A DNA stretch of 64,000 bases from Chthoniobacterales bacterium (lineage in GTDB: Bacteria; Verrucomicrobiota; Verrucomicrobiia; Chthoniobacterales; UBA6821): contig JBAPTI010000004.1 in assembly GCA_049282095.1 (NCBI GenBank), forward strand, positions 1,770 to 65,769, read 5' to 3'. Both the position numbers and the translations under genes were made by a program. Below are positions 45,059 to 61,988 of the stretch, in pieces. The first letter of the stretch is position 1. Each line of letters opens with the position of its first letter. The notes under the pieces were generated by a model. That model made no database searches. It was given only the letters and a program-made list of their open reading frames with translations, and was not told where the DNA came from.

Positions 45059-45133
<75 letters not shown>

Positions 45134-45633
45134 CTTCAAAATCAGCCAAAATTACTCTTTCAGGCTGATGAATAAAGGCTCTACGGGCAACTTCCCTCCC
45201 TGGCCCCTCCTCGCGGATTTCCGCGGATCCTGCGAAATTTTTGTTACCTTTTGTTACCTTTTTTGAACTCTTCGCGGTCATTCGGGACGTGCATCAGAAT
45301 GTCTCTGGGTGTGATGGTTTTGACTCAGAGACGGAAATTACCCAACAGCCCAAGTTTTTGCGCAAACTCGATCACTGGGAAAAACATGCCTACCAGTCCA
45401 CTTGATCGAAAAGGCTCAGGCGTGATCATGCCTCGAAGACCCCTCGCCTCGATGCAATCGATTTCGCAATGAATGAGGTTTAAAATTCCTCGCAGCGGCC
45501 GCACATGAATTTTGCGCCAGGCAATAAATACAAAAAAGGCACAATCTTTATTCAAAAACTCGATTTGGCCTCAAATTGGATTGCAACAAGGGGTATAAAT
45601 ACATATTTTGCCTAAAACGTTTTTAATCCACCT

Positions 45634-46770
45634 ATGAACATAGAGAAGTTTCACCCAGGGGAACTCCGCCAGCAGTATCACTACCAGAGCTTCCAACCCA
45701 GCCCAGTGAATCATTCCTGGACTTGGGAGGATCCCGAAATTCATAGCTTGCTGGCCGAGGCCAATAGACGCTTAGGAGAGCTCAATGGCCTCTCGTTAAT
45801 CGTCCCCGATATTGACCTCTTTATCCAGATGCATGTGGTCAAGGAGGCTCAAACCTCTAGCCGTATCGAAGGCACTCGCACGGAGATGGACGAGGCTTTG
45901 GAGGAGAGTCCTGAGCAAATTACTCCAGACAAACGTGACGACTGGCAGGAGGTGCGGAATTACATCAATGCGATGAATAGCTCGATCGAGGCGCTGGGCA
46001 CTCTACCTCTTTCGAACCGCCTCCTTTGTCAGGCACACGCTACTTTGCTCGACGGAGTGAGAGGAGAAGGCAAGACGCCCGGGGAGTTTCGACGCAGTCA
46101 AAATTGGATTGGCGGAGCCACCCTTGCAGATGCCGTCTTCATTCCGCCACATCACGAGGAAGTCCATGCTCTCATGGGTGATCTCGAGAGCCTCTGGCAC
46201 AATGAGGCCATCACCGTTCCTTACCTGATACGCATTGCAATCAGTCACTACCAGTTTGAAACAATTCATCCATTCCAAGATGGCAATGGCCGTATTGGCC
46301 GACTCCTCATAGTTCTCTACCTTGTCAGCAAGGGGCTCCTTCACCGGCCTTGTCTCTATATTTCTGATCATCTCGAGAAGCATCGCAGTGCCTACTACGA
46401 CTCTCTTATGGCCGTCCGCACCCGCGGCGATCTAGGCCAATGGATCCGATTCTTCTTGGTAGCCGTTATCGAGACCTCGAAGCGTGGAGTGGAAACCTTC
46501 CAGAAAATTCACCGCCTTCGTCAGGAAACCGCATCGCGCATCGCCACCCTTGGGCATCGAGCATCCAGGGCTCAGCAGGCTCTCGATCACATATACCGCA
46601 AACCGATTATTACTGGAGCACAGCTCGCTTCTCAACTTGGCATCAGTCAACCAACCACTGATCGACTTCTCGCCAATCTTGTAAACCTCGGCATTCTCGA
46701 GGAGTTGACCGGCAAGAAGCGCAATCGTGTATTCTGCTACCGCGAATACTACCAGCTTTTCCTTTCCTAA
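45634..46770 (+). CDS. Fic-family protein (AMPylase-type) with C-terminal winged-helix domain
   Basis: Canonical Fic motif HPFQDGNGRIGR. C-terminal ...ITGAQLASQLGISQPTTDRLLANLVNLGILEE is HTH-like. Confidence 0.85.
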   Translation: MNIEKFHPGELRQQYHYQSFQPSPVNHSWTWEDPEIHSLLAEANRRLGELNGLSLIVPDIDLFIQMHVVKEAQTSSRIEGTRTEMDEALEESPEQITPDKRDDWQEVRNYINAMNSSIEALGTLPLSNRLLCQAHATLLDGVRGEGKTPGEFRRSQNWIGGATLADAVFIPPHHEEVHALMGDLESLWHNEAITVPYLIRIAISHYQFETIHPFQDGNGRIGRLLIVLYLVSKGLLHRPCLYISDHLEKHRSAYYDSLMAVRTRGDLGQWIRFFLVAVIETSKRGVETFQKIHRLRQETASRIATLGHRASRAQQALDHIYRKPIITGAQLASQLGISQPTTDRLLANLVNLGILEELTGKKRNRVFCYREYYQLFLS

Positions 46771-46796
46771 AGGCACGAAAACAAAAGTTGGATATT

Positions 46797-47375
46797 ATGT
46801 ATCATTACTCTTGGCATCAAAGCTCTAATGTAAGCAGGCAGAAATATACCTGTGGTTTTTGCAGCTCTATTGTATCTCCAGATCATGGATACCAAACTGC
46901 AAATGGAGTCGGTCACACTGCGCGAATTTACATCTGTCCGAATTGCGGCTGTCCGACTTTCTTTGGAGCGGATAAAAAACAGGTCCCAGCAATTAGACTA
47001 GGAAACGAAGTAAAAGGGATTACAGATGAACATGTTCAATCTGCATATAATGAAGCAAGAGATTGCAGTGGTTGCGGAGCATACAGCGGTTCCGTTTTAT
47101 TATGTAGAAAACTCTTGATGAATATAGCTGTAAACCATGGCGCGAAAGCCGGGGAAAGTTTCTCTTACTATATTGATTATCTTGAGTCTAACGGATTTGT
47201 GCCTCCTAATGGAAAAGCCTGGGTTGATGTAATTAGAAAAAAAGGGAATGAGGCAACTCATGAGATTCCAATTATGAGTTCGGCAGATGCACAACAAGTG
47301 CTGCATTTTACGGAAATGCTATTGCGATTTATTTATGAGTTTCCAAGCATGATTCCCCAAGAAAATACTGTGTAA
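46797..47375 (+). CDS. Zinc-ribbon + DUF4145-like helical domain protein
   Basis: CGFC...CPNCGC ribbon. C-terminal LLCRKLLMNIAV...VIRKKGNEATHEIP resembles the DUF4145 R..GN.a.H block. ATG 46797 (TTG 46788 in the ORF track). Confidence 0.5.
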   Translation: MYHYSWHQSSNVSRQKYTCGFCSSIVSPDHGYQTANGVGHTARIYICPNCGCPTFFGADKKQVPAIRLGNEVKGITDEHVQSAYNEARDCSGCGAYSGSVLLCRKLLMNIAVNHGAKAGESFSYYIDYLESNGFVPPNGKAWVDVIRKKGNEATHEIPIMSSADAQQVLHFTEMLLRFIYEFPSMIPQENTV

Positions 47376-47444
47376 TAAAAACTTATTATATAGCTGGTTC
47401 TGTGAAATTTTTCGGAGCACACCATTAGTCAAATAATTTTACAT

Positions 47445-48272
47445 ATGAGTGATGATAACACTATTCGCGATACAGCTGATGCAATTAAAGGCATTGTAGA
47501 AGCGGTGCCCGTCTACCAAGATGTAATGCAGCCGGCAGCAAAAGAAGTGGGAGCCGCCTTACAAACCGTAGCTAAAACACTACATGTTTTACTTGCACCT
47601 GTTTCTGCTCTTGTGTGGGGATATGATAAAATCAAAGATCATGTTACAACGAAAGTAAGCGAAAAGCTTAAAGATATTCCTCCAGAGCGAATGAAGATGC
47701 CTGAGCCGAGCGTGGCAGGTCCAGCTCTTGAGGCTTTGCGATATACTGGTTATCAGGAGACGCTTCGTGATTTGTATACAAACTTACTCGCGACCTCTAT
47801 CGATTCAGCTACTGCACACCAAGCCCATCCGGCTTTTGTTGAAATTATTAAGCAGATGTCTCCCGATGAAGCGCTCATAATTCGTGCGCTTTCAACTTTG
47901 CCTATAAGGCCGATGCTCGATGTCCGATTCGAAAAGTCCGATAGTAATCTGGGCCGATGGGTGATTAGATATTTTTCTTTAGTAGCAAACGAAGCTGGCG
48001 TAAAACACACGGACCTCAGCGCTAACTATCTAATTAATCTGCAAAGACTTGGATTAATTGAACTGAGAGAGAATTACACATTGCACAGCGAAGAGGGAGA
48101 TGTATATCAGCCCCTTCGTGAGACTACTCAAGTACAAAATGTGGTAAATCAATACAATGCTCTAGATGGACATAAGACTGCATTTACCCCTGGTGCAATC
48201 ATCACCACTGAACTTGGCAATCTTTTCATTCGCGCATGTGTCATCGATGGCACTCATGCGTTAAAAGTATAA
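47445..48272 (+). CDS. Abi-alpha (DUF4393) abortive-infection-family protein
   Basis: 275 aa. PAAKEVGAAL..., PEPSVAGPALEALRY, LRDLYTNLLATSID and HPAFVEIIKQMSPDEALIIRAL match my recollection of the DUF4393 profile. Confidence 0.55.
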   Translation: MSDDNTIRDTADAIKGIVEAVPVYQDVMQPAAKEVGAALQTVAKTLHVLLAPVSALVWGYDKIKDHVTTKVSEKLKDIPPERMKMPEPSVAGPALEALRYTGYQETLRDLYTNLLATSIDSATAHQAHPAFVEIIKQMSPDEALIIRALSTLPIRPMLDVRFEKSDSNLGRWVIRYFSLVANEAGVKHTDLSANYLINLQRLGLIELRENYTLHSEEGDVYQPLRETTQVQNVVNQYNALDGHKTAFTPGAIITTELGNLFIRACVIDGTHALKV

Positions 48273-48401
48273 GCCAATCGAGTAGGAAGATTAACGCATC
48301 GGGCCTTGGAAAACAGCCTGATTCCGTATTTTGATCACCTCTCATGAAGAGGCCGCATGAGATCCGGGCAGAGGATTTTCAGATGCGGTTTGAACAGCCT
48401 C

Positions 48402-49448
48402 TCACCATTCACAGCAGCCCGGATTGCTGATTCTTGAGATCGAGTGGCGGAGGCGGGCTTCGCTGTATTGTTCAAACAGGGCGGGGTTTTCCTTACGGAG
48501 CCGCTGGAGTTGTTCCCGCAGCGGATCGGGAGCGGGAGGCTCTTCCTCGGGAATATTGAGGGGAGCTGGTGGCTGGGTTTCTTTTCGACGAAAGATCGAG
48601 ATGATGGAGCCCAGCAAGCCGGGGCTGGTTTCAGGCTTGGGAGCATCGGGTGGGCGGAAATCCACGCGGGAGAGCGTGGGGAAGCCCTTGGCCAGCTTAA
48701 GAAAATCCTGGGCGGACATATCGTAGATAAAGGCATCAACGCTTTCCAGTGGGGCCAATCCCAGATCCACTGCGCGCTGACGGAGCAATTCCATATCCCG
48801 CTTCAGGCCCTCTTCCTTGCGGGCTCGAACCTCCTCGGAAACTTTCGCTGAGAACATGCGGTCAAAGGTGATGTCGTCATCATCCTTTTGTTTGGTAATG
48901 CGTGGCTTAGCCGGCCTCTCTTTCTCCTCAGGCTGGCTTTTCATAAAAGCGATCATCTCCACTCGTGGTTCCGGAGGATGAGGGGGCAGCCCCAGCTCTT
49001 CCAACCGACTCCAGAGGACACGCATTCCCTCGATCTCGGGAAAGATCTTCACAAAGAGCTCTCCTCCCATCAGCTCGAAATGGGCTCTGAGAGCCTCCAA
49101 CTTCGATGACAAGGCCTCCTGGTGCTGGTCGCGAAGGGTTTGATTGATTCCGCCGTTCATTCGCTCGGGATCACGTGGGAGCAGTTCGCAGGATTCGAGT
49201 TTGATACGCTCACGGATGAGACCCTCCAGAAGGCTGGAGGGCCAACCTTCGAGCTTCTGCTCCGAGATGATGTGATTTCCGGTGAATAGCCCGGCCATGA
49301 ACCTCCATCTCTTTTCGTGATACGCCTTCGTCTCGGGCAGGGCATCCCACGTGCTGCGCATCCGAGCGTAGGCGACGAAGAGATCGGGGGGAGAGATGTA
49401 GGGATCGGGTGGGGGCTTCATCTCAATCTCATGTTGGTGGGCGTTCAT
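48402..49448 (-). CDS. Hypothetical protein (orphan, charged central region)
   Basis: 348 aa, codon usage looks coding. 94 nt downstream of the M28 gene on the same strand. No motif recognised. Confidence 0.55.
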   Translation of the reverse strand: MNAHQHEIEMKPPPDPYISPPDLFVAYARMRSTWDALPETKAYHEKRWRFMAGLFTGNHIISEQKLEGWPSSLLEGLIRERIKLESCELLPRDPERMNGGINQTLRDQHQEALSSKLEALRAHFELMGGELFVKIFPEIEGMRVLWSRLEELGLPPHPPEPRVEMIAFMKSQPEEKERPAKPRITKQKDDDDITFDRMFSAKVSEEVRARKEEGLKRDMELLRQRAVDLGLAPLESVDAFIYDMSAQDFLKLAKGFPTLSRVDFRPPDAPKPETSPGLLGSIISIFRRKETQPPAPLNIPEEEPPAPDPLREQLQRLRKENPALFEQYSEARLRHSISRISNPGCCEW

Positions 49449-49542
49449 CGTGTCCTGCTGCTCACTCGTCGAGGATTCCTCTGCCCGGCAGTCCCATCAG
49501 GACTGACAAAGACGATCGCCATGGAAAATTCCGGCGACGGTT

Positions 49543-50457
49543 TCATGCCTGCTGCTTTTGGAGCGCCTCGACTGCGTTAGCAATTCTCCGTGTGAGCAGG
49601 GCCATGCGATGGTAATTGAGTTTTTCGGGCGTGTCGGATGAGCGGTGGTAGTGAGTGTTGCGGCACATGGCCGTGTCGGTGAGCATGATGGCCGGATAGC
49701 CCTCGTCCCAGTAGGAGAGGTGGTCAGACAGACGCAAAAAATCCCCCAGGAAGTCGGTCGAGAGAACAGGCAGGTCGTCGTCGCGTTCGAGTCCTGCATC
49801 GAACGAATCCATGAAATCCCGGGAGATTTCATTTCCGACAATGGCAAGAAAGTTGCCGATCGTAGGGTCGACACCGCTCAGGCGGCAAAAGTGATTGAGC
49901 TCCTCCGGGATGCCGAGAAAGCCAATCAATCCGAGAGACTGGGAGTCCGGCTCGTTGGTAAAAACACCGAGGCTTTCCAGACAGATCATCCCGGCGACGT
50001 TTTCATCGCGCTGACGGCATGATTTGGCATGGACGACACTTCCCATGTTGGAGGTGCAGAAATGAGGAGGCTCCTCGTTGGCAAAGGCGACAAATCGGAG
50101 CGCTTCGGCGCAGGGCTTTCCTGCAAATATCCGGGCCAATTCCAAAAGGATGGCAACAGCGGAGGCGTTGTCATCCGCTCCGGGAGTGCCAGGGGCCGAG
50201 TCGTAATGGGCACCGATGATGTAGTGGGGCTTGTCATAACCGACGAATGTGGACGGTAGAGCTTCGACATTGGCGCAGAGGACACCGTCCGCACGGAATT
50301 CCTGCCGGCTCACCTGATAATCCAGCCCCTGAAACGCTCCCGCCAAATAATTTGCAGCGCGCTCCAAGCCCTCGGGACAATTGCCCGTATTGCGTTCGGA
50401 AGCGCATAGCGTGGCAACATGAGATTTGAGAGCGGATTCGAGTCCTGAAAGATTCAT
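49543..50457 (-). CDS. M28-family zinc peptidase fold (aminopeptidase or glutaminyl-cyclase-like)
   Basis: HYDS, GADDNASAVAILLELAR, NEEPP and SDHLSY metal-ligand blocks. ATG 50457 (MNLSGLE...) is preferred over 50649 because the upstream extension covers a nucleotide-level repeat read in a different frame at its second copy. Confidence 0.7.
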   Translation of the reverse strand: MNLSGLESALKSHVATLCASERNTGNCPEGLERAANYLAGAFQGLDYQVSRQEFRADGVLCANVEALPSTFVGYDKPHYIIGAHYDSAPGTPGADDNASAVAILLELARIFAGKPCAEALRFVAFANEEPPHFCTSNMGSVVHAKSCRQRDENVAGMICLESLGVFTNEPDSQSLGLIGFLGIPEELNHFCRLSGVDPTIGNFLAIVGNEISRDFMDSFDAGLERDDDLPVLSTDFLGDFLRLSDHLSYWDEGYPAIMLTDTAMCRNTHYHRSSDTPEKLNYHRMALLTRRIANAVEALQKQQA

Positions 50458-50486
50458 GGATGAGGTTATCACGATACTGATTTCTT

Positions 50487-50559
50487 CCACCTTACCTCCA
50501 TCCGACGACAGGAAGTGTCTATCCCCATCTTTTTTTCCAGGTGGACACTTCCTGTCGTC
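50487..50559 (-). promoter_or_regulatory. Conserved 5' element copy 1 (33-nt block + 16-bp perfect hairpin)
   Basis: Block 50487-50519 is 30/33 identical to 52492-52524. Stem gacgacaggaagtgtc (50504-50519) pairs with gacacttcctgtcgtc (50544-50559), loop 24 nt. Ends 29 nt upstream of the M28 ATG. Confidence 0.6.
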
Positions 50560-50680
50560 CCCGGTTATGCGATAATCCTCCTTGAAACAGAAGATCAGAA
50601 AGGGCAGCTGACCGGGCGCGAGCCCGTTATGGTGGGATTGCCCGTCCACCCTGTTTCCCTCAACTCAACCACCCCCAAAT

Positions 50681-50818
50681 ATGATCACTGATCCCACGCC
50701 TACCCCTGAAGAGACCATTGCTAAAAAGGCCGAGCCTCAAGCCGATGACTTTGATCTTCCTGCCGAGAGACAGGATGGCACCAACTGCACCGACGACATC
50801 TGCACCGTCTGCCAGTAG
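50681..50818 (+). CDS. 45-aa acidic peptide with Cys/Thr-rich C-terminus (candidate RiPP precursor or small metal-binding peptide)
   Basis: My translation: MITDPTPTPEETIAKKAEPQADDFDLPAERQDGTNCTDDICTVCQ. Below the ORF-track length cutoff. Followed within 45 nt by a strong terminator. Confidence 0.45.
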   Translation: MITDPTPTPEETIAKKAEPQADDFDLPAERQDGTNCTDDICTVCQ

Positions 50819-50860
50819 TAGATTGACGCTCCCAGCTGACTTTGCAAACCGGAGTGCGTA

Positions 50861-50900
50861 GGCCGGGCTAGGGTTAACCCCTTCCCGGCCATTTTCATTT
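50861..50900 (+). terminator. Rho-independent terminator after the 45-codon ORF
   Basis: ggccggg-cta-gggtt/aaccc-ctt-cccggcc composite stem, followed by attttcattt. Confidence 0.7.
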
Positions 50901-51014
50901 CGGGGTCAGTCTGTCTCCTACGTCTTCTCCTCTCTTCACCGGCGCACCTAGCATCCAAGCCCGAACTGATGCTCGCAGGAAAGACCCATCAGCGGAAAAG
51001 CAACGGATAACAGT

Positions 51015-51371
51015 TTATCTGTCCGGGCGATGAGTAGAATCGGGTTCACCATCCGAGGCCAACGAACCAGGCCAGAAGGACGAGAGAACCTTTGGTTGCT
51101 CAGGCGTTGCGGGAGACTCCTTAACTGTATCAACAAGGAGTGAAGGGTCGTTGATGTAGCGATCAAAGAATTCCCGGATCGGCATGGTGATGTTCGATTG
51201 CGGTGTTGGGAAGACGGCCACGAGATCTTCCCCCACAATCTCGCCAGCGAATTTTTCGCCCTTACTGACAACACGGCAGGGGGTGTGCGGGCATCCCTCC
51301 CAATCCATGCGATGAAGGTGATCAATCAGGTGATCAATGACTGCGCGGAGGAGTGGAGGATCGGATTTCAT
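51015..51371 (-). CDS. Hypothetical protein (118 aa)
   Basis: 37 nt downstream of the 342-aa gene on the same strand. No motif recognised. Confidence 0.5.
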   Translation of the reverse strand: MKSDPPLLRAVIDHLIDHLHRMDWEGCPHTPCRVVSKGEKFAGEIVGEDLVAVFPTPQSNITMPIREFFDRYINDPSLLVDTVKESPATPEQPKVLSSFWPGSLASDGEPDSTHRPDR

Positions 51372-51408
51372 GAGGAGTTTACAGATTTTTTCGGGCAGCA
51401 GGATTCAA

Positions 51409-52437
51409 TCAATTCAGCACATCCGCCAGATCGTTCATGAATGCGGTCAAAACCGAATGCTCCTCGTCGCACTCGCCGGGTAATGAAGAAAACCGCACCT
51501 TGATATAGGCATCGAAACGGCCCGCCAGCAGAATCGTCGACATGAATCTTTCCTCTTCGGGTAAGGCCGTGCCGATCAGAAATCTGGCGTCTCTGAAGGG
51601 AAGAGCATCCCTGCCGTAGGTCGTGACACTGTTGCGAAGTGCCTTGAGACCGGAGACTGCATGGTGGGCTTCCAGCTCCGATACAGAGCCTTCCATCTGT
51701 GCTATCACTTGGTCCGAATCATGACCGGGTTCGATCAGCTCCTCCTGGAGATCGTAGATGTAGAGATCTACTTTACGGCCATCATCATCCCCATAGCGCA
51801 GGCTGATCCCTTCTCCGGGACCCGTGGACTCATAATCCGTGGCGAAGCAATAGGACATACCCCCCATCTCCTCGGGAAAGCGAATCCGGATTTTGTCGAC
51901 GGACAACCAAGAGGTCGATGAGTTGATGCGAGGTTCGCCCATGCTGCAGTAGGCGAATCGCATGGAGTTCTTGAGGAGATGATCCAGCCCTGCAAAACTA
52001 GGATCACCATGCCACGCCTCAGCTCCCCTTAGTGCCATGGAACTTCCGATGAACGACCGATCCTCCGTCAAGTGACCCAGCAGGTAATAGGACCGGCATT
52101 CGCCATCCGCCATGGAGTAATGACTGGTCATCATGAACCCATTGGCCATGGGTATCAGCCTGAGCGGGCCATCTTCCGGGAAGCCTGGGATGAACTTCCT
52201 CATCGTCTGATCGATGGATTCGGTGGAAACTCCGAATTGCTCGAGGTCATCACTATCGAAGGCGCAAGTTGCCCATTCGATCTCCAGCGGAAGATCTCCC
52301 ACTGAAAAAATCATGGAACCCTTCTCGGAAGTCGTTCGAAAAACCAATTCCGAGGGGAGTTGAATCCGGAAGATCCCATCATCGTAAATCTCTGATTCGC
52401 CCGAAAACTCGAGATTGCCCTTTGGGATGATGTTCAT
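51409..52437 (-). CDS. Hypothetical protein (342 aa, orphan)
   Basis: ATG 52437 (MNIIPKGNLEF...). The upstream 43 codons of the ORF-track entry cover the conserved non-coding block. No motif recognised. Confidence 0.55.
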   Translation of the reverse strand: MNIIPKGNLEFSGESEIYDDGIFRIQLPSELVFRTTSEKGSMIFSVGDLPLEIEWATCAFDSDDLEQFGVSTESIDQTMRKFIPGFPEDGPLRLIPMANGFMMTSHYSMADGECRSYYLLGHLTEDRSFIGSSMALRGAEAWHGDPSFAGLDHLLKNSMRFAYCSMGEPRINSSTSWLSVDKIRIRFPEEMGGMSYCFATDYESTGPGEGISLRYGDDDGRKVDLYIYDLQEELIEPGHDSDQVIAQMEGSVSELEAHHAVSGLKALRNSVTTYGRDALPFRDARFLIGTALPEEERFMSTILLAGRFDAYIKVRFSSLPGECDEEHSVLTAFMNDLADVLN

Positions 52438-52491
52438 GGGGAGTGTGAGGATGTGTTGGAAAATGGATGGTATGAAATTAGTGCGATAATT

Positions 52492-52563
52492 CCACTCTAC
52501 CTCCATCCGACGACAGGATGTGTCCACCTGGTGGTTTTTGACGGAATCACGACATCTCCTGTC
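52492..52563 (-). promoter_or_regulatory. Conserved 5' element copy 2
   Basis: Block 52492-52524 (ccactctacctccatccgacgacaggatgtgtc). Imperfect partner arm gacatctcctgtc at 52551-52563. Ends 54 nt upstream of ATG 52437. Confidence 0.6.
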
Positions 52564-52634
52564 CATCCTGCGGTGGCAAAATCCATTCTTTCAAACGACG
52601 ATTCCACCCAGATCTCCATTCCCTGTCCTCTCCA

Positions 52635-53372
52635 ATGCCCCGCATCGCTCTCATCTCCGATATCCATGGCAACATTGATGCCCTGGAAGCCGTGGTTGAG
52701 GACATCGGACGGCAACGGATCGATGAGATCTTCTGCCTCGGGGATATCGTCGGCTACGGGGCGGCTCCTGCCGAGTGCCTGCAGCTGGTTCGCGAGCACT
52801 GCACAGAGACGATCCTGGGCAACCATGATGAGTATCTGGTCAAGGGGCCCGATAACTATGTCCTGAGCAAGCGGATCGGTATCCCGCTCCTGCTTGCCCG
52901 GCAGACGATTCCCGGTGAGGACTTGCAGTGGCTGAGAGAGCGCCCCTACACGGTTGATCGGCACGGCTTCTCGATCGTCCATGGGACCCTGCACCACCCT
53001 GAGGAGTTCTACTACCTGCTGGAGCGCCGGGATGCAGTTCTGCACTTTGAGCAGCAGCGCACCCCGCTCTGCTTCCACGGGCATTCCCACCGTCCTCTCA
53101 TCACCCTGTCACAGCCCGATGGAGACATCCGTTGGGGCATCCCGTGGGAGACCGAGACGCTGCTTGACCGGAACCAAAGGCTGGCGATCAATGTTGGCTC
53201 CGTCGGCCAGCCTCGGGATCAGGATCCCCGCGCCGCCTACGGGATCTACGACATGGAGCAGAACTCCTTCACCCTGCGCAGAGTGGACTACGACATCGAG
53301 AAGGCCATTCAACGAATCGTGGACGCCGGAATTCCCGAGGAGAATGCCCGAAGGTTACGGGATGGGGTATGA
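52635..53372 (+). CDS. Calcineurin-like metallophosphoesterase
   Basis: SDIHGN, GDIVGYG, GNHD and HGHSH motifs. 245 aa. Confidence 0.8.
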   Translation: MPRIALISDIHGNIDALEAVVEDIGRQRIDEIFCLGDIVGYGAAPAECLQLVREHCTETILGNHDEYLVKGPDNYVLSKRIGIPLLLARQTIPGEDLQWLRERPYTVDRHGFSIVHGTLHHPEEFYYLLERRDAVLHFEQQRTPLCFHGHSHRPLITLSQPDGDIRWGIPWETETLLDRNQRLAINVGSVGQPRDQDPRAAYGIYDMEQNSFTLRRVDYDIEKAIQRIVDAGIPEENARRLRDGV

Positions 53373-53385
53373 AGAGGTTGGGCAC

Positions 53386-53841
53386 TTACTCTCTTTGTTT
53401 CAGGGATTCAAGAGCGTCGTCGTATGCTTGTTGTAATCTAGCAGCTTTTTGAGCTCTCTCTCTTAGAGTTCTGGAGGTTACCTTCCCTGACTTTTTTGGG
53501 TGACTTGCAGCTAAGAGTTTTTCATATGCAGCATGAATCTCTTGCTCAGTTGCATATGGCTTGATTTTAAAAACTCTCCACCAAGGGTCGCGATCATCAG
53601 GAAGCGAAGACAACACGATTATTTTTTCTGATTTAGATAAAGAACTTTCCTTTTTTGAAAATGGATCTTTTGAAAGCCTGAAATCAGGAAACTTTATTTC
53701 GCCCCTTTGCACTTTCCCACGTAGCCACCCAGCGAAATCTTTACTTTTACTATACAAGTATCCAATAGCCGCTCGTTTTTGTTGTGGGGAAAGTTGATCC
53801 CAGTAACTTTTTGCTGTTTCAAACGCAGTTTTCTTTTTCAT
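53386..53841 (-). CDS. J-domain-like protein (HPD replaced by HPK)
   Basis: C-terminal ATEQEIHAAYEKLLAASHPKK...AQKAARLQQAYDDAL follows the J-domain helix II / loop / helix III pattern. AT-rich gene. Confidence 0.45.
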   Translation of the reverse strand: MKKKTAFETAKSYWDQLSPQQKRAAIGYLYSKSKDFAGWLRGKVQRGEIKFPDFRLSKDPFSKKESSLSKSEKIIVLSSLPDDRDPWWRVFKIKPYATEQEIHAAYEKLLAASHPKKSGKVTSRTLRERAQKAARLQQAYDDALESLKQRE

Positions 53842-54382
53842 CGTCACGCCTGCTCGTTTCTTTTTTAGTAACTAACACATTTTTTATATCTTGAAAGAAT
53901 TTGGGCCAACTAAAATAGGCAAACGCCTTTCTAATCTCTAGCATCTTTTTACTGATGTCATATTCATCATTTTCCATAAATGTTTTAACAAAATCTGATG
54001 TTGTTCTCCATCTGTCTGCGCCGACTATAAACAATAGATCTTCATCTTTGAAATCACCACAAATAATCCTCCACCAAATTGTTGAAAATGGTATTGGGCC
54101 TATTATATCGGATCCTTCTTTTCTATAAAAAACCCATGGATCCTCGTCATTCTCTCGACCTGTAAAAGAAATATTCTTCCCGTGTACTGGGGAAGGAGGT
54201 ATTGCGCTACTAAGAGGCTGTGCATTGTCTATTATGTCATTAATCTTAAACAAATCATCTTCTTTAAGATGACCAATACGAAACAATGATATCACAATAT
54301 CATAAGGCCAAGAACCCAACTCGGAACCATCTCTATAGATTGTTAGATATTTTTTATCTTTTTTCTGAATATCGGATTTCAT
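53819..54382 (-). CDS. Protein with two GYF_2 (DUF4339)-like domains
   Basis: YLTIYRDGSELGSWPYDIVISLFRIGHLKEDDLF and WVFYRKEGSDIIGPIPFSTIWWRIICGDFKDEDLLFIVGADRW. AT-rich gene that overlaps the next gene. Confidence 0.5.
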   Translation of the reverse strand: MKSDIQKKDKKYLTIYRDGSELGSWPYDIVISLFRIGHLKEDDLFKINDIIDNAQPLSSAIPPSPVHGKNISFTGRENDEDPWVFYRKEGSDIIGPIPFSTIWWRIICGDFKDEDLLFIVGADRWRTTSDFVKTFMENDEYDISKKMLEIRKAFAYFSWPKFFQDIKNVLVTKKETSRRDDEKENCV

Positions 54383-54434
54383 AGTTTGTTAGGATTTGGG
54401 AATCGCTTAGTTTATAGGCAATCAAGCGTATTAT

Positions 54435-57365
54435 TTATTGAATGGGCTTGATGCAATCAGAGGTGATGTAGGGGGTTGGATCGGTGATGATTGGGGGGAG
54501 GCCGGGGGCGGTGACGGGTTGGCCGGCGGTGATTCTCGCGGCGACGGATTGGTTGAGCGCGAGAAGCTGGGCGAGGAGGTCGGCCTTGGGATCGAAGCCG
54601 TAGGCCGAAAGGACAGCGGCATCGAGTGCGGCATGGGCATCCTTCAGCGGATTGGCTCCGGGGAGTTCGAGGGTGCGGTAGAGAGCACGGAGGCCGCCTT
54701 TGAGGTGTTGGATCGCCTCTTCGCGGATGCGGCGAACTTCACGCCCCGCTGCGGCCACGGCCTCGATAGCCTTGGCACTAGGGTCCTGTGGCCACGGGAA
54801 GGTGTCGAAGACAGATTCCGCACTGTAACGGAAATCGGATTTTAGTTTTCCGCATTTGGTAACAAACCAAAGCCAGTGCAGATGGGACTGAAGGATTCCG
54901 AAGCTGTAATCATCGGCAAATCCAAAAACCTGAATCAGATTGCTGGGCCTGAAAGCCTGATCGATGAATAGGAAGACCGGTCGCTTGGTGACATAGGCAC
55001 ACGCGAGGTAGCGAGGAAGGGGACGCAGGACGGAGAGCATCTCCGGACGGCCAAAGCTGAGTTGCCACCAGCGGGCTAGGAAGGCTTTGTGATGGCCGCG
55101 CATGTTCCCATCAGCATCTTTGCCATCCTCAGCCTTCTTCTCTCGATCGGGCAGGACTTGGGTCTTCACCCAGTCAAAGGCTCCACTGTATCCCGCTGCC
55201 GTGAGTTGATCCATCTGCTCGAAATCCAAAACAAATCGGCTGCTTGTACCCTTAGTCAGAACCTCTAGCCCATTCAAATACGGGTGAATCACCGCAGATG
55301 ATTTTGGATCTTTAATCAGAATCTCGTCTCTCTGTTCCTTCGTGAGCAAAAATCCTTCATGTCCGAGCATCTGGCCATTGAAACAGCGCTGGGGTTTGGT
55401 ATTGCAGTCGAGTGGCCCGGCTGTGCTGACATCGGTCTGATCGCTCAGGGCTGAGTTGATGACCGGAACATCACGGAAGTTGAGTTCGTATTCTTTCGAG
55501 GCTTTTTTCCCCTGTTTCTTCCACTGCTTTTTTGTCGCGGCGGAGGGCTCGACCTTATGCCAGAGGCGGCGGGTTCTCGGTAGGAGAGCGGGCTCCTGGG
55601 TCTTCACCCAATTCGCAATGGAGACGTGGACATTCGCCTCGCCGCTCCAGGGCTGGTTATCGACGGCCTCCACGATGGTGCCCTCCTTCACGATGTGATC
55701 GAGGCCGCCGACACGGGAGGCGTTGTTGCGGATGTTCTGTGTGCCGACGAGTCCGGCGCGGCCAGCTACGGGATCGGCAGGAGTACAAGGAGGCAAGTGG
55801 TCATGGGCGCGGCGGAACCAATAGACGCAGAAGTCGGCCATGCCGGGCACTTCGGGGTAGAGGGCGCGGAGTTTCTTCACGTAGTCGGGGCCGAGCTCGG
55901 GCTTGAGCAACTTGGCTCCGAGGAAGGGGGGATTTCCGATGATGGCGTCGGCCTTGGCCCATTCGGTGCGGGTGGCTTTTCCATCGGCTCCCTCGACGAG
56001 GAGGGCATCAGAGGCGATGAAGTTTCGATCGAGATTGTCGAGTGGCAGGGGACGCTCGGTGATGTGGAGTTCATCGATGGCGAGCTTCCTCGCGATCATC
56101 ATTGTGACCTTGGCCAGCTCAACGGCGAAGGGGTTGATGTCCATGCCGTGGAAGTTCTGTGCCGAGAGGAAGGAGAGGCGCATTTGGTCGCCGGCGGCCT
56201 TGCTCGGGAACTCGGTGTCGAGGCGTTCGTAGATGCGGGCCTCGAGGCGCTTCATCTCGCGGTAGGCAATGTAGAGGAAGTTCCCGGAGCCACAGGCGGG
56301 GTCGAGAACCTGGAACTCCTGAAGGCGGTGGAGGAGCTTTCCAAGGTCACGGGCGGTGGTGGCCTTCTCGATCTCCTTGCGCCATGGCTCGACGATTGTA
56401 GGGCCGACGATCTTCATGATGTCGGCGGGGTGGGTGAAGTGGGCGCCGGAGGCGTGGCGCTCTTCCTTGTCCAAGGTCTGCTCGAAGACGGTGCCGAAGA
56501 TCTCGGGCTGGACCTTGGACCAGTCGGAGGCCGCGCATTCCCGGAGCAGGACGATCTCGGGGCCTGTGAGTTCGAGCTCGGCGGGCTGACTGAAGACGCC
56601 GCCATTGAAGTAGGGGACGCCCTTGAAACGGCCTCCGGCGTTTCCGGAGGAGTTGTTCATCGCTCGGAAGAGGCCTCCAATGAGGTCGTAGCTGGTCTTC
56701 TCATCGACCTCGTCAAGGAGGCGGGTGACGAAATAGCGCTCCAAGAGCCCGATATCCTCGGCAAAGAAGGCGATCAGGATCTGGAGGATGAAGCGTTGGG
56801 CGAGAGGACGATCGACGCCCCGGGAGACGAGAAGATTGAAGCACTTCGCGAGCTTCGCCGCGGCCTCACGGGTGACGGCGACGTGCTCATTCTCAAAGAC
56901 GGGCTTGGGCTGGTCGGGGAAGAGGAAGGCGAGGGAGCCGTAGTTCTCTGCAAGGTCGGCCAGCTTGACCCTTCCTACGGGTGAATCCATCTGGGTCTCG
57001 AAGTCGTAGATCTCGAACTCGTCGAAGTTGCAGAGGATGACGTAGCGTGGGCGGCCGGGAACGAGTCGCGTCCAGTAGTCGAAGGCCTGGCGGTAGTGTT
57101 TCGAGAGCACGGTGCCGCGCTTCTTCATCTCGATCAGGACGAGCGGCTTCCAGACGAAGTCGGCAAAGGCGGTGCCGCCGCCATCCTCAGAGGCCTTGCG
57201 AACGCGGTACTCGGGCTCACCTCCCACATCGAGCGATCCGGGGTGACCGAATGCCTGAAAGAGGCGGTCGAGGAAGATGTGGGCTTCTCCCTTCTCATCC
57301 CCCTTCACATGGAGGCGCGCCCACTCGATAAAGGAGGAGAGTTTGTCGGTGCGGGAATCGCTCAT
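54435..57365 (-). CDS. MmeI-family type IIL restriction-modification enzyme (fused nuclease / N6-adenine methyltransferase / TRD)
   Basis: 976 aa. N-terminal D...ExK nuclease block (FADFVWKPLVLIEMKKRG), methyltransferase motif I VLDPACGSGNFL and motif IV IIGNPPFLG. Confidence 0.75.
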   Translation of the reverse strand: MSDSRTDKLSSFIEWARLHVKGDEKGEAHIFLDRLFQAFGHPGSLDVGGEPEYRVRKASEDGGGTAFADFVWKPLVLIEMKKRGTVLSKHYRQAFDYWTRLVPGRPRYVILCNFDEFEIYDFETQMDSPVGRVKLADLAENYGSLAFLFPDQPKPVFENEHVAVTREAAAKLAKCFNLLVSRGVDRPLAQRFILQILIAFFAEDIGLLERYFVTRLLDEVDEKTSYDLIGGLFRAMNNSSGNAGGRFKGVPYFNGGVFSQPAELELTGPEIVLLRECAASDWSKVQPEIFGTVFEQTLDKEERHASGAHFTHPADIMKIVGPTIVEPWRKEIEKATTARDLGKLLHRLQEFQVLDPACGSGNFLYIAYREMKRLEARIYERLDTEFPSKAAGDQMRLSFLSAQNFHGMDINPFAVELAKVTMMIARKLAIDELHITERPLPLDNLDRNFIASDALLVEGADGKATRTEWAKADAIIGNPPFLGAKLLKPELGPDYVKKLRALYPEVPGMADFCVYWFRRAHDHLPPCTPADPVAGRAGLVGTQNIRNNASRVGGLDHIVKEGTIVEAVDNQPWSGEANVHVSIANWVKTQEPALLPRTRRLWHKVEPSAATKKQWKKQGKKASKEYELNFRDVPVINSALSDQTDVSTAGPLDCNTKPQRCFNGQMLGHEGFLLTKEQRDEILIKDPKSSAVIHPYLNGLEVLTKGTSSRFVLDFEQMDQLTAAGYSGAFDWVKTQVLPDREKKAEDGKDADGNMRGHHKAFLARWWQLSFGRPEMLSVLRPLPRYLACAYVTKRPVFLFIDQAFRPSNLIQVFGFADDYSFGILQSHLHWLWFVTKCGKLKSDFRYSAESVFDTFPWPQDPSAKAIEAVAAAGREVRRIREEAIQHLKGGLRALYRTLELPGANPLKDAHAALDAAVLSAYGFDPKADLLAQLLALNQSVAARITAGQPVTAPGLPPIITDPTPYITSDCIKPIQ

Positions 57366-57454
57366 AGGGGAGATGTGAGACGTTTAGCGGATGAGCGACT
57401 CTCTGGCGAGGGGATTGACTGACTGGAGCAGGCTCTTGATGCGAACAAAGGGGG

Positions 57455-57919
57455 TTATCGGAAATTTCCGTGAATCCATCGGGCGTGGGCAAAGCAGCTC
57501 TCGATGATCCGATCACGAACGAGGTGTTCGGCCTCGGTATCCGACAACTTCCGATCCTCCATGACCGGGAGGATGATTTCCTCGTGAAGCTCCCAATCGC
57601 TCATGCGCGGAAGCTTCCCGTAGAGCGCGAAGAGATCGGCGGCCATGTCCCAGTAGTAGCGCCACATCCCGGTGAGGCTTTCCGAAACCTCGGAATCCCT
57701 CACCCACTCACAGAATGCCTGATACGAGGCGAATCTCCCCTCGATCAACGCATCAGGCCCCATGACCTCGTCGCAGAGATCGCCCAGGATGCTGACTGCT
57801 GTCATCAGGAAGGAGCGCATGGCGCCCGCCCCGGTGAGGAGATGGTAGGTGTCCGAGGCTCTTTCTGACTCCGAAAGGAAGTCGTCGATGGTGAGTCGGG
57901 GTTGCTGGTGGCTGGCCAT
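57455..57919 (-). CDS. Hypothetical protein (about 154 aa)
   Basis: ATG 57919 (MASHQQPRL...) lies 17 nt after the upstream gene stop. No motif recognised. Confidence 0.5.
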   Translation of the reverse strand: MASHQQPRLTIDDFLSESERASDTYHLLTGAGAMRSFLMTAVSILGDLCDEVMGPDALIEGRFASYQAFCEWVRDSEVSESLTGMWRYYWDMAADLFALYGKLPRMSDWELHEEIILPVMEDRKLSDTEAEHLVRDRIIESCFAHARWIHGNFR

Positions 57920-57936
57920 GGGGTGGAAAAAGTCTG

Positions 57937-58650
57937 TCACCGGAGGTGCTTGGGAACGAAGTAGTTCCGGATCCACCATACCCCCACCATGAAGCAGGGC
58001 CCTGAAAACATGAAGGCTCCGGGGGCGAAGGACTCGCTCTGCTCGGAAAGAAACACGAGCAGGATCGCCGAGATACCCACCAGGATCGCGGTGAAGCCCA
58101 GAAAGAGAAAGAAGCCATCCTGATAGCCGTCCCGGTGGAAATCGCCGATCATGCGGTTCCAGTTGTCCTTGAAGCTCTTGGGATCGGGACGACTGTCAAA
58201 CAACTGTGCAAATGCACCAAGCATCACAAGCGGGCCGAGAATCCACCCGATGAATGGCAGGAGCAGCAGCAGGAGACCCAGAATCAGGCATCCGAGAGAT
58301 TCCTTGGCCCGTTCTTTGAAGGGTTTGTAACCGCTTGGAAAACTGGCTGCCAAGTAGGGTGCGATGTTTCGTTGTCCAGGAGCGGGTGAATTCAAGTAAG
58401 GTTTCTCCTCTTGAGTAGCATCTAGGGTTGGTGTCACTCGAACCATGGATGACGAATGCAGGAGTGCAGGCTCTCTGAGAAAGACTTCCAGTGGCTTCCA
58501 TTTACCTCCCTCTTCTCTAGCCAAATCAGAAAGCGTGATCCGTCCCTCCACAAGCATGGCGTCGATGAGATCCATGCCGAAGGGGCCGTAGATCTCGTCT
58601 TCGCGAAGGATGAAGATCATCGTCTTCTCAGAAGGCCACGGTTGTTTCAT
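57937..58650 (-). CDS. GYF_2 domain + four-TM membrane protein
   Basis: MIFILREDEIYGPFGMDLIDAMLVEGRITLSDLAREEGGKWKPL, then hydrophobic helices. Start is ambiguous (58668 TTG, 58650 ATG, 58620 ATG). Confidence 0.55.
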   Translation of the reverse strand: MKQPWPSEKTMIFILREDEIYGPFGMDLIDAMLVEGRITLSDLAREEGGKWKPLEVFLREPALLHSSSMVRVTPTLDATQEEKPYLNSPAPGQRNIAPYLAASFPSGYKPFKERAKESLGCLILGLLLLLLPFIGWILGPLVMLGAFAQLFDSRPDPKSFKDNWNRMIGDFHRDGYQDGFFLFLGFTAILVGISAILLVFLSEQSESFAPGAFMFSGPCFMVGVWWIRNYFVPKHLR

Positions 58651-58715
58651 GAACCCACTCTTCCACAACCGGGTAGACAGGAGGTGTCTAGTCAGCGGGA
58701 ATAAATTCCCTGCGC

Positions 58716-59783
58716 CTATTCACCATAGACCGATGCCAATGCGCGGGCTTTCTCCGCGATCGTTTTCCGGAGGAGAGCGGGGGCGATGACCTTCACAGTG
58801 GCTCCCCAGCCCAAAATCCATGGCTCGATCTCGAGGAAGGTCGGCTTGGCGAAGGGGAGTTCCATACGGATGCGCCCACCGGCAAGGGGAGTCGTCTTCT
58901 GCTCAGGGTGCCAGAGAGTCTCCGAGGCTCGTTGGGCCGCACCCGCCTCGAACTCGAGTACGACGGGCTGCTTAGGCTTCCGGTCGCTGGCCACAATCCC
59001 GAAACTATAACGGAAGCTCTCAGAGGGTTCCCTTGAATCGGGTACGAATGTCGCTTCGGTAATCCGAGCATTGCTGATGCGAGCGAATTTGAGGGTTCGG
59101 CGTTCGGAGGTTCCTGCCTTGGTGGCATGGAGGTACCAGGAGCCGTTGCGCATGAAGACGAAGCGGGGTTCGAGTGTTCTGGAATCCTTAGGGCCGACGG
59201 ATGGCTTGTAGTCGAGGACGACACGGCGGCTCTCGCGGATAGCCCGGTGGAGGAGCTCGAAGAGGCGGACGTCTTCCTTTCCGATCTCGGGCTTTCCCTC
59301 GAAGCGGAAGTGGACGGAGCTCTCCCACTTCTTCCAGTCGGTGGTGCCGGTGAGGATGCCGAAGGTGTGCTCGAAGGACTCGATCATGCTGCGCCCGATT
59401 TCTGTGGAGCGGTAGGGCTCTAGGCACTGGCGCAGGAAGTGGAGCGTGAGCAGGTCACGGTCCCCGATCTGGACGATCGGTAGGTGCTTGAGATTACCAC
59501 GCAGGGCGTAGCCCCGCCGAGCCTTGTCATGGACAATCTCGTTCGTCTGTTTTTCTCCTTCGATATTGCCCAGAAGCGCATTCAGTTGCGCGATGTCGCG
59601 CTGAATCGTTCGAGTATCGACCTCGCAGATCTTGGAGAGCTTGGCGAGTGAGGGGTAACGCTTGTTCTGAACCTCCGAAAAAATCAGGAAAAGCCGATGG
59701 ATGTGATCACGGGAGGTGTTTCCATGGATCTGCTTACGTTTTTTAGCGGGCGGCTTGCCGGATGACTTTCTAGATGAGGCCAT
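58716..59783 (-). CDS. HTH + WYL-domain transcriptional regulator (BrxR/CapW-like architecture)
   Basis: N-terminal HTH (SLAKLSKICEVDTRTIQRDIAQL), literal WYL triad (NGSWYLHAT), C-terminal WCX-like tail (EPWILGWGATVKVIAP). Confidence 0.75.
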   Translation of the reverse strand: MASSRKSSGKPPAKKRKQIHGNTSRDHIHRLFLIFSEVQNKRYPSLAKLSKICEVDTRTIQRDIAQLNALLGNIEGEKQTNEIVHDKARRGYALRGNLKHLPIVQIGDRDLLTLHFLRQCLEPYRSTEIGRSMIESFEHTFGILTGTTDWKKWESSVHFRFEGKPEIGKEDVRLFELLHRAIRESRRVVLDYKPSVGPKDSRTLEPRFVFMRNGSWYLHATKAGTSERRTLKFARISNARITEATFVPDSREPSESFRYSFGIVASDRKPKQPVVLEFEAGAAQRASETLWHPEQKTTPLAGGRIRMELPFAKPTFLEIEPWILGWGATVKVIAPALLRKTIAEKARALASVYGE

Positions 59784-59845
59784 AGCTTTATCCGCCACCG
59801 ATAACCCCTCACACACGGCCTGACGAGTGGATTTCTAGCTCTTGT

Positions 59846-60115
59846 CTAGAGGGTCTCTTCCGGTGGAAGAAAGTCCTTCACATCCATGGGATGCTTCCGT
59901 TTTAACAAGAAGCTATAGAGCCTCCATTCCGGATCCGGAACGGTTTGCTTGTATGGCGGAAAAATGACCGTCGTCGTCCTCAGGCCGTCGACTGCCTCCT
60001 GGCGGTAGAAGCTTTCGACCTGCTTGGGGCGGAAGACGAAGTCGTTGATGATGACAAAGTCAGAGTAGTTGTCCGGTGCGATGCTGTATTTGTTGTTGGG
60101 TCCTGTGATGGGCAT
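59846..60115 (-). CDS. Hypothetical protein (89 aa)
   Basis: ATG 60115. Overlaps the relaxase 3' end by 56 nt. No motif recognised. Confidence 0.35.
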   Translation of the reverse strand: MPITGPNNKYSIAPDNYSDFVIINDFVFRPKQVESFYRQEAVDGLRTTTVIFPPYKQTVPDPEWRLYSFLLKRKHPMDVKDFLPPEETL

Positions 60116-61166: not shown

Positions 61167-61393
61167 GAAAGTTCCTCCAGAAATGCAATCGCCTGATCGA
61201 GCTTGGTCTCGATCCTTTCCAGCGCAGCGGGATCGATTTTGCTGTCGAGTTCTGCAGCGTAGATCAGCGCTTCGAGTGTCTCGGCTTTGGTGCGAAAACC
61301 ACGCGCCTCGTGCAACCGATGGAATCGCTCATACGCCTCGTCGCTGAGCAGAAACTCCATGCGCCTTGTGTTGGGCTTTTGATGATGCGGCAT
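61163..61393 (-). CDS. MobC-like / ribbon-helix-helix relaxosome accessory protein
   Basis: 76 aa. RRMEFLLSDEAYERFHRL beta-strand/helix pattern. Translationally coupled to the relaxase. Confidence 0.45.
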   Translation of the reverse strand: MPHHQKPNTRRMEFLLSDEAYERFHRLHEARGFRTKAETLEALIYAAELDSKIDPAALERIETKLDQAIAFLEELS

Positions 61394-61514
61394 CGCGTTT
61401 TAAGAGCGGAGTTGGTCGGGTTCCCTGGGGCTCGGCTAACGGATTCAGGGAAATCTCTGGAGCGTGCCTGACACGCGGAAGAGGCAGCGGGGAGGAAGCG
61501 CCAGCGGCCCCGCC

Positions 61515-61537
61515 AGCACTTTCCGGGAGAAAGTGCT
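61515..61537. repeat. 8-bp inverted repeat, oriT candidate
   Basis: agcacttt-ccgggag-aaagtgct, about 125 nt upstream of the mobC-like start. Confidence 0.3.
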
Positions 61538-61933
61538 ATCCTGTTGGTTGTTTGGCCCGGGTGAACAAACACCACGATTCAGCTTCCAGAGGTCTGGAAT
61601 GGATCTCTGTGATGGGGGTGAATGAGGTTGTCCCGAGTAGATCGAACAGGTGGGTGAGCCGATTGCAGGGAAGCGGAGGGGATGAGGCCGATTCGCTGCA
61701 ATGGGCGATGGGTAAGAGGATCGTCTGGCAGGGTGAGCTGATGGGACGGAGGAAGCAGGAACAAGCGGGGCCCACACCGAGCCCCCAGTGACGTCCGCAC
61801 AGCGGGCGACGACACCCCATGAGCGTTGGAAAACAGCAGGTGCGAAAAAACTGTCAGAAGAGGGCTTCGGGCGGGCCTGAATGAGGGGTCGAACGAATTC
61901 CATTTCATCCATTCTTTCAGGAAAAAAAGCCCT

Positions 61934-61957: not shown

Positions 61958-61988
61958 TGCCTCTGTAGATGTGTTTTATTTGGTGGCT

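Follow-up and report, generated by a model that had tools for sequence, protein, structure and literature searches.

A portable, regulated small-protein cassette on mobile islands of Verrucomicrobiota

The 64,000-nucleotide stretch analysed here (the window: positions 1,770 to 65,769 of contig JBAPTI010000004.1 from a Chthoniobacterales bacterium) carries, on a genomic island, a 45-codon open reading frame (ORF) whose short acidic product ends in a cysteine-rich tail. A sequence-only reading of this DNA had quoted the translation, which is borne out letter for letter, and had called the ORF unannotated; this does not hold everywhere, as an identical protein is already deposited in NCBI as 'MAG: hypothetical protein WAL87_00395 [Chthoniobacterales bacterium]', MAG standing for metagenome-assembled genome. 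The ORF is the coding part of a compact cassette that runs from two operator-like palindromes around a promoter, through a leader RNA of about 80 nucleotides (nt) and a start lacking a Shine-Dalgarno (SD) motif, to the ORF itself and a terminator. Its features, with the analyses behind them, are as follows.

50507–50519 and 50544–50556, no strand assigned: two 13-bp palindromes, GACAGGAAGTGTC (GACA-N5-TGTC); motif count against shuffles
50571–50576, + strand: -10-like hexamer GATAAT, inferred; reading of alignments
50577–50665, + strand: structured leader (5' untranslated region), a four-helix, cloverleaf-like junction of about 80–89 nt; RNAalifold and covariance model
50584–50590/50651–50657 and 50595–50598/50608–50611, + strand: leader helices P1 and P2; RNAalifold
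50613–50617/50622–50626 and 50631–50636/50645–50650, + strand: leader helices P3 (with a GCGA loop) and P4; RNAalifold
50681–50818, + strand: 45-codon gene, MITDPTPTPEETIAKKAEPQADDFDLPAERQDGTNCTDDICTVCQ; translation, homologue alignments, substitution counts and intact-frame survey
50861–50900, + strand: intrinsic-terminator-like hairpin (50861–50890) and U-rich run (50891–50900); folding energy and relatives

The 45-codon gene and its homologues

The ORF opens with ATG at 50681 and closes with TAG at 50816–50818, directly followed by a second in-frame TAG. Its product has a net charge of about -8, counted from the sequence, an acidic N-terminus rich in Pro and Thr, and a 12-residue tail (TNCTDDICTVCQ) of the pattern C-x4-C-x2-C, with three Cys and three Thr; an AlphaFold2 model (predicted local distance difference test, pLDDT, 57) is disordered and devoid of secondary structure. 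The region before the ATG is C-rich and has no SD motif. Such motifs are absent in about 16 of the 20 window genes checked, pyk and msrB among them, with C/A-rich stretches preceding the ATG; since this absence is usual in the genome, gene finding in this organism should not depend on SD motifs. The size of the ORF alone is unremarkable (171 ORFs of at least 30 amino acids [aa] in 14 kb), and because ORFs this long are common in this DNA, the case for a gene rests on comparative evidence.

The sequence-only reading had named frame conservation and substitution patterns as checks, and both came out in favour of coding. The frame is intact in 57 of 57 instances (the window plus the fetched loci), and all indels among the homologues are multiples of three, those of the variable N-terminal half included. 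In contrast to that half, the last ~24 residues (DDFDLPAERQDGTNCTDDICTVCQ) are nearly invariant. For the last 24 codons, a Nei-Gojobori comparison of the window with contig L001, one of the most distant loci, gives about 10 synonymous differences (Sd) over 14.3 sites versus 2 nonsynonymous differences (Nd) over 57.7 sites, a ratio of nonsynonymous to synonymous change (pN/pS) of about 0.05 with synonymous change saturated; in the N-terminal half the ratio is about 0.5, indicating weak constraint. The ORF is kept even in context groups C and D, whose flanks defy alignment. A fortuitous ORF, in DNA that does not code or matters only through its structured RNA, would suit both the commonness of ORFs of this length and the conserved structured RNA directly upstream; against it stand the third-position substitution pattern, the in-frame indels, the intact frame of every copy, and the conservation of the ORF in groups C, D, L026 and L030, where the leader RNA motif is absent, leaving this explanation a next to negligible probability. 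By these comparisons, then, 50681–50818 is a genuine, strongly conserved small-protein gene under strong selection, and it is counted as such because it is conserved and not because of its length.

In all, about 20 distinct homologues of the 45-mer were recovered, the frame being kept throughout via in-frame indels. A word-indexed search of 5.8 billion proteins yielded eight of them (45–49 residues, one identical), a profile scan across 1.84 billion representative proteins only three more, and a degenerate DNA pattern eleven true copies on metagenome contigs. The DNA pattern found no copy in GTDB species genomes or in IMG/VR, and tblastn against PLSDB and INPHARED gave chance-level matches only. 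All copies recovered are located on metagenome or MAG contigs, and the only names attached to them are those of Chthoniobacterales MAGs. Three blocks recur in the alignment: an N-terminal M[TI]TDP, the motif DF[DE][LI]P-x(2,3)-Q-[DE]-G, and the 12-residue tail with Cys at position -2 and a C-terminal Gln. The tail varies little (P0010 lacks its first Thr and P0011 its first Cys).

One contig, L034, exposed a sister family (family 2), MTTDPTPEE..DAMDDFELPSQQEGAQRMI[VI]CEGGCE, of 45 residues and twelve clusters. Beside L034 it occurs, as ...DDFELPSQQEGAQRMI[VI]CEGGCE, in L038–L050 (e.g., L039 10001–10232). The superfamily thus comprises two tail types, ...TN(N)CTD[DE][IG]CTVCQ and ...AQRMI[VI]CEGGCE. 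Common to both families are the MTTDP start, the acidic linker and the invariant DF[DE][LI]P-x(2,3)-Q-[DE]-G; the 12-residue tails differ completely, although both end in Cys-x(2,3)-Cys-[Gln/Glu], and that of family 2 (AQRMIVCEGGCE) is free of Ser and Thr. The shape noticed in the sequence-only reading, an acidic leader-like part followed by a Cys/Thr tail, is therefore real: a second family joins the same N-terminus and FDLP-type motif to another 12-residue Cys tail. The two kinds also occur in tandem. In L039, L040 and L042 the stop of the family-2 gene directly abuts the ATG of a 30-residue, N-terminally truncated family-1 form (MNLKSSDFELPTERQEGTNNCTDEGCTVCQ) that retains only motif and tail, and L034, L041 and L043 have a comparable second copy.

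A word-indexed profile search with both families returned 29 small proteins; almost every one of them has either of the two tails, and no third type appeared. P0028 is a variant without a Cys tail, and P0025 (WAL87_02070) is a second copy in the same NCBI MAG, where it lies beside a WYL regulator. Neither family has a match in Pfam, NCBIfam, PHROGs, PADLOC or the PDB sequences, and by these searches the peptide is a member of a narrow, orphan microprotein superfamily.

Regulatory sequences and the leader RNA

The ~180 nt 5' of the ORF are conserved across both peptide families. They include the pair of 13-bp palindromes, which lies between the peptide gene and a divergent gene for an M28 peptidase; where the -35 element of the peptide promoter would be expected, there is overlap with the right copy. 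With at most two mismatches, GACAGGAAGTGTC is matched six times in the window versus 1.47 expected, a number reached by none of 100 shuffles. A second pair (52512–52524/52551–52563) lies between an operon encoding 385-aa and 118-aa proteins and a metallophosphoesterase gene, and a single site (58676–58688) adjoins the gene of a WYL regulator; at other loci the sequence is found upstream of genes for 268-aa, 342-aa and 241-aa proteins. On this distribution, GACAGGAAGTGTC is probably the operator of an island regulon, and the HTH-WYL protein encoded at 58716–59816 is a candidate for the regulator acting on it. Together the two palindromes at the peptide gene make up a 20-bp 'hairpin' (50504–50559). 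It was considered as an RNA element or terminator and rejected as such, given its position upstream of the -10 box and the recurrence of the 13-mer, singly and in pairs, at other promoters; because of this recurrence, 50504–50559 is read as two palindromic DNA sites.

No full promoter came out of a generic sigma-70 scan, and the -10 element is therefore counted as inferred. Relatives have GATACT or TATTTT at its position, L038 and L039 have instead TTGACC-N17-GAAAAT, and group C and L030, as read from their sequences, appear to have simple TTGACC-N17 promoters with short leaders.

Between promoter and start codon, RNAalifold predicts a fold of 22 pairs arranged as four helices around a junction. 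A covariance model of this leader scores 108.8 bits in the window and has one match upstream of each of 25 other genes, which encode the peptide or a T5orf172 protein; in its alignment of 15 distinct copies, 98.8% of the cells are paired. P1 and P3 have three pairs each with compensatory changes, a total of six that is attained by none of 500 shuffles and approached by no slid register, with the caveat that the covariation was counted on an alignment fitted to the covariance model itself. P2 and P4 are invariant and hence neutral for the structure, and the P3 cap is GCGA, GAAA or GCAA across the copies. The leader was matched before every peptide gene of groups A (the window's own) and B, L028, L029/32/36, L051 and family 2; the model has no match in groups C, D, L026 and L030. 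One match, in L034, is upstream of a T5orf172/MUG113 gene, so the leader is a modular cis-element of island cargo genes and not part of the peptide. Outside the window, copies of the leader are found at L034 718–811, L051 9875–9966 and 23 other loci.

Rfam (4227 families; cmscan at E ≤ 1 over 49000–52500) contains no match to the leader; cmscan returned only mir-463 and SNORD48, far below their gathering scores and both off the leader. The leader pattern was not found in GTDB species genomes or IMG/VR. A tRNA, hammerhead, twister or other known RNA was rejected on the Rfam result and on that of ARAGORN, which gives only the true tRNA-Val, and an upstream short ORF with ATG at 50629 was rejected as coding because 1-nt indels between groups shift its frame. 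The GCGAAAGC-type mini-hairpin and the mobilisable context had prompted a reading as an origin of transfer (oriT), single-stranded DNA promoter or primase site. This was ranked below the RNA reading, since the element always lies between the -10 box and the start codon on the sense strand, and since one pair is G.U in nearly all copies (it would be G.T as DNA). We accordingly regard 50577–50665 as a candidate new leader RNA, previously undescribed. With known cis-regulatory 5' leader RNAs it shares a multi-helix junction at the mRNA 5' end, covariation, invariant junction nucleotides and a position before more than one kind of gene. Unlike riboswitch-like leaders it has no evident ligand or expression platform, its distance to the start codon ranges from 15 to ~110 nt, and unlike known leader RNAs it is confined to cargo genes of mobile islands and does not precede metabolic genes.

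Downstream of the ORF, the strong terminator claimed in the sequence-only reading stands. The hairpin at 50861–50890 has a folding energy of -22.3 kcal/mol and is followed by AUUUUCAUUU; in relatives, a C-to-U change in the 5' arm leaves a G.U pair that is preserved only on the + strand. A generic terminator scan overlooked it because its loop exceeds 8 nt. With a GC-rich hairpin and a U-run on the transcribed strand, 50861–50900 is an intrinsic (Rho-independent) terminator by definition.

This arrangement, in which the ORF is the first cistron behind a structured leader and has behind it, in groups A and B, a terminator or else small genes at close spacing, raises the possibility of a regulatory leader or arrest peptide, whose nascent chain would stall the ribosome in a sequence-specific way and so control the terminator or the downstream genes, the released peptide being functionless. 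A variable N-terminus combined with invariance of the C-terminal ~24 residues, including the very last, is a conservation gradient typical of arrest peptides such as TnaC and SecM. However, the terminator begins 43 nt past the stop codon, beyond masking by a ribosome at that codon, and nothing co-oriented lies behind it in the window; elsewhere the downstream genes vary by context, and two different invariant Cys tails point to the chemistry of a released product. We consider stalling improbable as the function of this gene.

The island and its changing neighbours

The peptide gene and its surroundings belong to an island that occupies 45059–64000 of the window. The features that frame them are listed here.

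45059–45133, + strand: tRNA-Val(GAC), boundary at which the island with the peptide gene meets the housekeeping genes pyk, gpsA, plsY and msrB; ARAGORN and gene map
48402–50457, - strand: divergent operon of the M28 aminopeptidase-like gene (49543–50457) and a gene for a 348-aa orphan (48402–49448); Pfam and context comparison
51015–52566, - strand: convergent operon of genes for a 342–385-aa orphan (51409–52437/52566) and a 118-aa orphan (51015–51371); context comparison and operator sites

The island begins at the tRNA gene; no integrase and no directly repeated tRNA end could be seen in the window. Its cargo includes a Fic gene, a DUF4145 gene with a PD-T7-4-like match, an Abi_alpha gene matching PDC-S47, and a 976-aa ORF (54435–57365) placed like the annotated MmeI-type restriction-modification gene of close relatives. 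It also includes the HTH-WYL regulator gene and a gene for a MobP-like relaxase (60060–61166), a 48%-identical homologue of which adjoins TrwB and ArdC in L001. On other contigs the peptide gene lies 243 nt (L013–15) or 3.3 kb (L016) from tRNA-Val, or 8 kb from tRNA-Asp (L001). It is also found within integrase-bearing elements with an AAA_25 primase/helicase-like gene and a weak terminase-small-like match (L039 has both, beside an integrase), type I or III restriction-modification genes and UmuD/UmuC. Judging from this gene content, most copies sit amid genes of tRNA-integrated islands, satellite-like elements or mobilisable elements of freshwater Verrucomicrobia. The peptide unit is thus a regulated cassette that mobile islands of Verrucomicrobiota carry along as a portable piece.

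Two contigs show local arrangements of their own. In L045, two inverted family-2 cassettes (2658–2801, +, and 12033–12170, -), each with leader and operator, bracket genes for an IS3 transposase, DUF4268, HsdR, a UmuD-like protein, an M48 peptidase and a UmuC-like protein, a block that could be a composite or invertible segment. In L001, a 58-aa ORF (8131–8307) that is restricted to group C (L001–L003) lies 22 nt behind the peptide gene; its product looks ribbon-helix-helix-like by eye (…LTGIRLDQGLKEAALIVAQRQNRSFSNYLENLVRKDV…) and has no Pfam match.

When ~600 neighbouring ORFs were clustered, no cluster proved common to all peptide contexts; thus, of the conservation asked about in the sequence-only reading, that of the tail holds (it is nearly invariant, P0011 excepted), and that of the neighbours does not. 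The most widespread cluster, a UmuD-like S24 protein, is found at 11 loci of both families. Four proteins often encoded nearby at other loci, UmuD, UmuC, SRAP and the 241-aa protein, have no counterpart anywhere in the window. The M28 gene is limited to the window's group, L032 and L051, the 118-aa gene to groups A and B, and the orphans are missing from groups C, D, L026, L030 and most family-2 contexts. The 348-, 118- and 342–385-aa orphans have no match in Pfam, NCBIfam, PHROGs, PADLOC or the PDB. The second operator pair (52512–52563) drives the convergent operon and is common to the metallophosphoesterase gene (52635–53372, +). Among related islands the three conserved orphans change position around the peptide gene, with the operator in common. 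Within the window's island type, the shared operator may thus indicate a link between the peptide and these orphans.

These neighbours bear on the proposal that the peptide is the precursor of a ribosomally synthesized and post-translationally modified peptide (RiPP), its N-terminal part being a leader and the 12-residue Cys tail a core, with the enzymes encoded at some other site in the host or supplied by the co-regulated orphans. The candidates in the window would be the M28 peptidase, the 342–385-aa, 268–348-aa and 118-aa proteins, and the metallophosphoesterase. In keeping with such a precursor, two families have the leader-like part in common and differ in their tails, tandem genes occur, including the form reduced to the 30-residue motif plus tail, F-[DE]-L recalls the FNLD box of class I leaders (a lead only), and the M28/orphan operons have an operator in common with the promoter of the peptide. 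The precursors of class I lanthipeptides (LanA, e.g., nisin NisA) are similarly short, with an acidic leader-like part and a Thr/Cys-rich C-terminal segment as in family 1. In the peptide, however, the box-like F-[DE]-[LI]-P, nearly invariant in both families, has Pro at its fourth position and stands seven residues before the tail. Unlike LanA, moreover, the peptide has an invariant tail that is not diversified, its gene resides on mobile islands amid defence and SOS cargo, and no LanB/LanC or other synthetase (LanM, LanKC, LanL) is present in any context.

The sequence-only reading had seen no LanB/C/M, radical-SAM, YcaO or DUF692 maturase near the gene, and this held within ±10 kb in at least 15 independent contexts by Pfam annotation; the sole Radical_SAM match is a BATS-domain (biotin-synthase-type) gene in L039, far from the peptide. 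Nor was any other RiPP enzyme family or a protein of the RiPP recognition element type found in these contexts, and the orphans, besides their patchy distribution, show no enzyme signatures. The family-2 tail has no Ser or Thr, and the family-1 variants P0010 and P0011 lack the first Thr and the first Cys, respectively; lanthionine chemistry therefore cannot be a mechanism shared by the superfamily. With tails of just two types there is no core diversification, and within each family it is the tail, not the leader, that is most conserved. A lanthipeptide or other RiPP with a local maturase is accordingly rejected, on the negative contexts and the Ser/Thr-free sister tail, and the precursor reading offered from the sequence finds no constant partner; in its wider form, with enzymes elsewhere, we judge it unlikely. 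The accompanying suggestions fared no better: the nearest solved relatives of the M28 protein are leucyl aminopeptidases (none of 15 matches is a glutaminyl cyclase, the activity that had been considered for it), the gene is present in some contexts only, and the cleavage envisaged after Arg30 to expose Gln31 finds no counterpart in family 2, where Gln-Gln replaces Arg-Gln.

The mobile location also invites comparison with arbitrium-like or Phr-like signals between elements, with the C-terminal 12-mer as the mature signal and the two tails as 'pherotypes'. The 45-aa size, the two discrete and internally invariant C-terminal peptides behind a common pro-region, and a promoter that appears regulated by the operator-like sites would all fit. 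Yet inspection finds no hydrophobic signal sequence, the N-terminus being acidic and Pro/Thr-rich, the neighbourhood has no conserved gene for a receptor, exporter or importer, and the hosts are diderm, all of which makes signalling highly improbable.

Possible modes of action and related systems

Because the sequence is kept while every neighbour changes, and because there are only two invariant tails, the product most likely needs no partner gene to act on a conserved target. Its disordered acidic chain, with one invariant aromatic-acidic motif and a terminal Cys pair or triplet, further suggests docking combined with a metal or disulfide knuckle, the design of a small inhibitor or modulator. 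We therefore tentatively favour, as somewhat short of probable, a stand-alone island microprotein under regulation, whose mode of action would be binding via a short linear motif and a Cys knuckle; a share of the probability goes to none of the readings named here. The 45-mer would work as such and not as the precursor of a dedicated maturase; its acidic-aromatic motif would dock onto a conserved protein of the host or the element, and the C-terminal Cys pair or triplet would form a metal-bound or disulfide-linked knuckle. Its role might be that of an island accessory or establishment factor, of an anti-defence, anti-repressor or (enzyme) inhibitor type, with expression gated by the operator-binding regulator of the island and by the leader RNA. 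More specific resemblances to a beta-clamp motif, an SSB-tail mimic or a CaaX box were discarded, as none shows the defining pattern, and a hirudin-like exosite tail (E = 1.7) is at chance level.

Several points weigh against an autonomous binding microprotein. Its mechanism is inferred from anatomy only, and a tail of such extreme invariance is uncommon among anti-defence proteins, which evolve fast. The shared leader-like motif, the two tails and the tandem copies also fit a RiPP precursor family. Where the island is of the window's type, one operator is common to the peptide promoter, the M28 peptidase and the conserved orphans, which could act on the peptide. Finally, metagenome contigs and two MAG names are all that the host range and the element types are drawn from. 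In a bolder reading, the two tails would be matured into distinct 12-residue Cys peptides or metal-binding warheads from the common DF[DE]LP..Q[DE]G pro-region, by machinery unlike known RiPP enzymes; the co-regulated M28 peptidase and orphans, for example, or a host enzyme would then supply it. We hold such maturation to be quite unlikely. If true, it would mean that a new class of peptide effector or signal resides on islands of Verrucomicrobia, where it is turned on via a cloverleaf-like leader RNA and a GACA-N5-TGTC regulon.

Among known systems, the favoured autonomous microprotein may be set beside the small acidic anti-defence and establishment proteins (anti-CRISPR [Acr] proteins with aca, ArdA/Ocr-type and PsiB-type proteins). 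Like them, it is small, acidic and orphan, and is encoded by a stand-alone promoter-to-terminator unit near restriction-modification, Abi and UmuDC genes, in accessory regions of integrative or mobilisable elements. Unlike them, it has no match in PHROGs or PADLOC, is much shorter, and has a tail far more conserved than that of a typical Acr; the one neighbour that might recall an aca gene is the 58-aa ORF of L001, whose ribbon-helix-helix look has no Pfam match and which is found in one context group. A second comparison is offered by the Pup and UBact tags, in which Pup displays a GGQ/GGE dichotomy; this is a lead only. The peptide is likewise short, acidic and disordered, with a C-terminal Gln (family 1) or Glu (family 2), but it ends in V-C-Q or G-C-E, not in Gly-Gly-[Gln/Glu] or R-[TS]-G-[EQ]. 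No Pup-type ligase, deamidase or proteasome genes are present in any annotated context, and a literature search for UBact found nothing.

The microprotein superfamily is an orphan one, and the leader RNA and the operator are candidates for new elements; each is of an already known kind. Proteins of fewer than 50 residues are systematically under-studied, and very strong purifying selection together with transfer as a whole promoter-to-terminator unit usually marks a function useful to the element, for example, in establishment, anti-defence or regulation. The leader RNA and the 13-bp operator offer an entry point to the control of cargo in genomic islands of the poorly studied Verrucomicrobiota. 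For natural-product mining, the locus is a cautionary case, in that the look of a leader with a Cys/Thr core arises without any biosynthetic context.

A further observation concerns the predicted docking motif. In L038 (10181–10444) and L041 (5357–5581), small acidic proteins are co-transcribed behind the family-2 peptide and have the C-terminus ...ELSDFADED(V/PL)P, whose acidic Asp-Phe motif recalls the DDFELP of the peptide; by this likeness, the two may share a docking partner.

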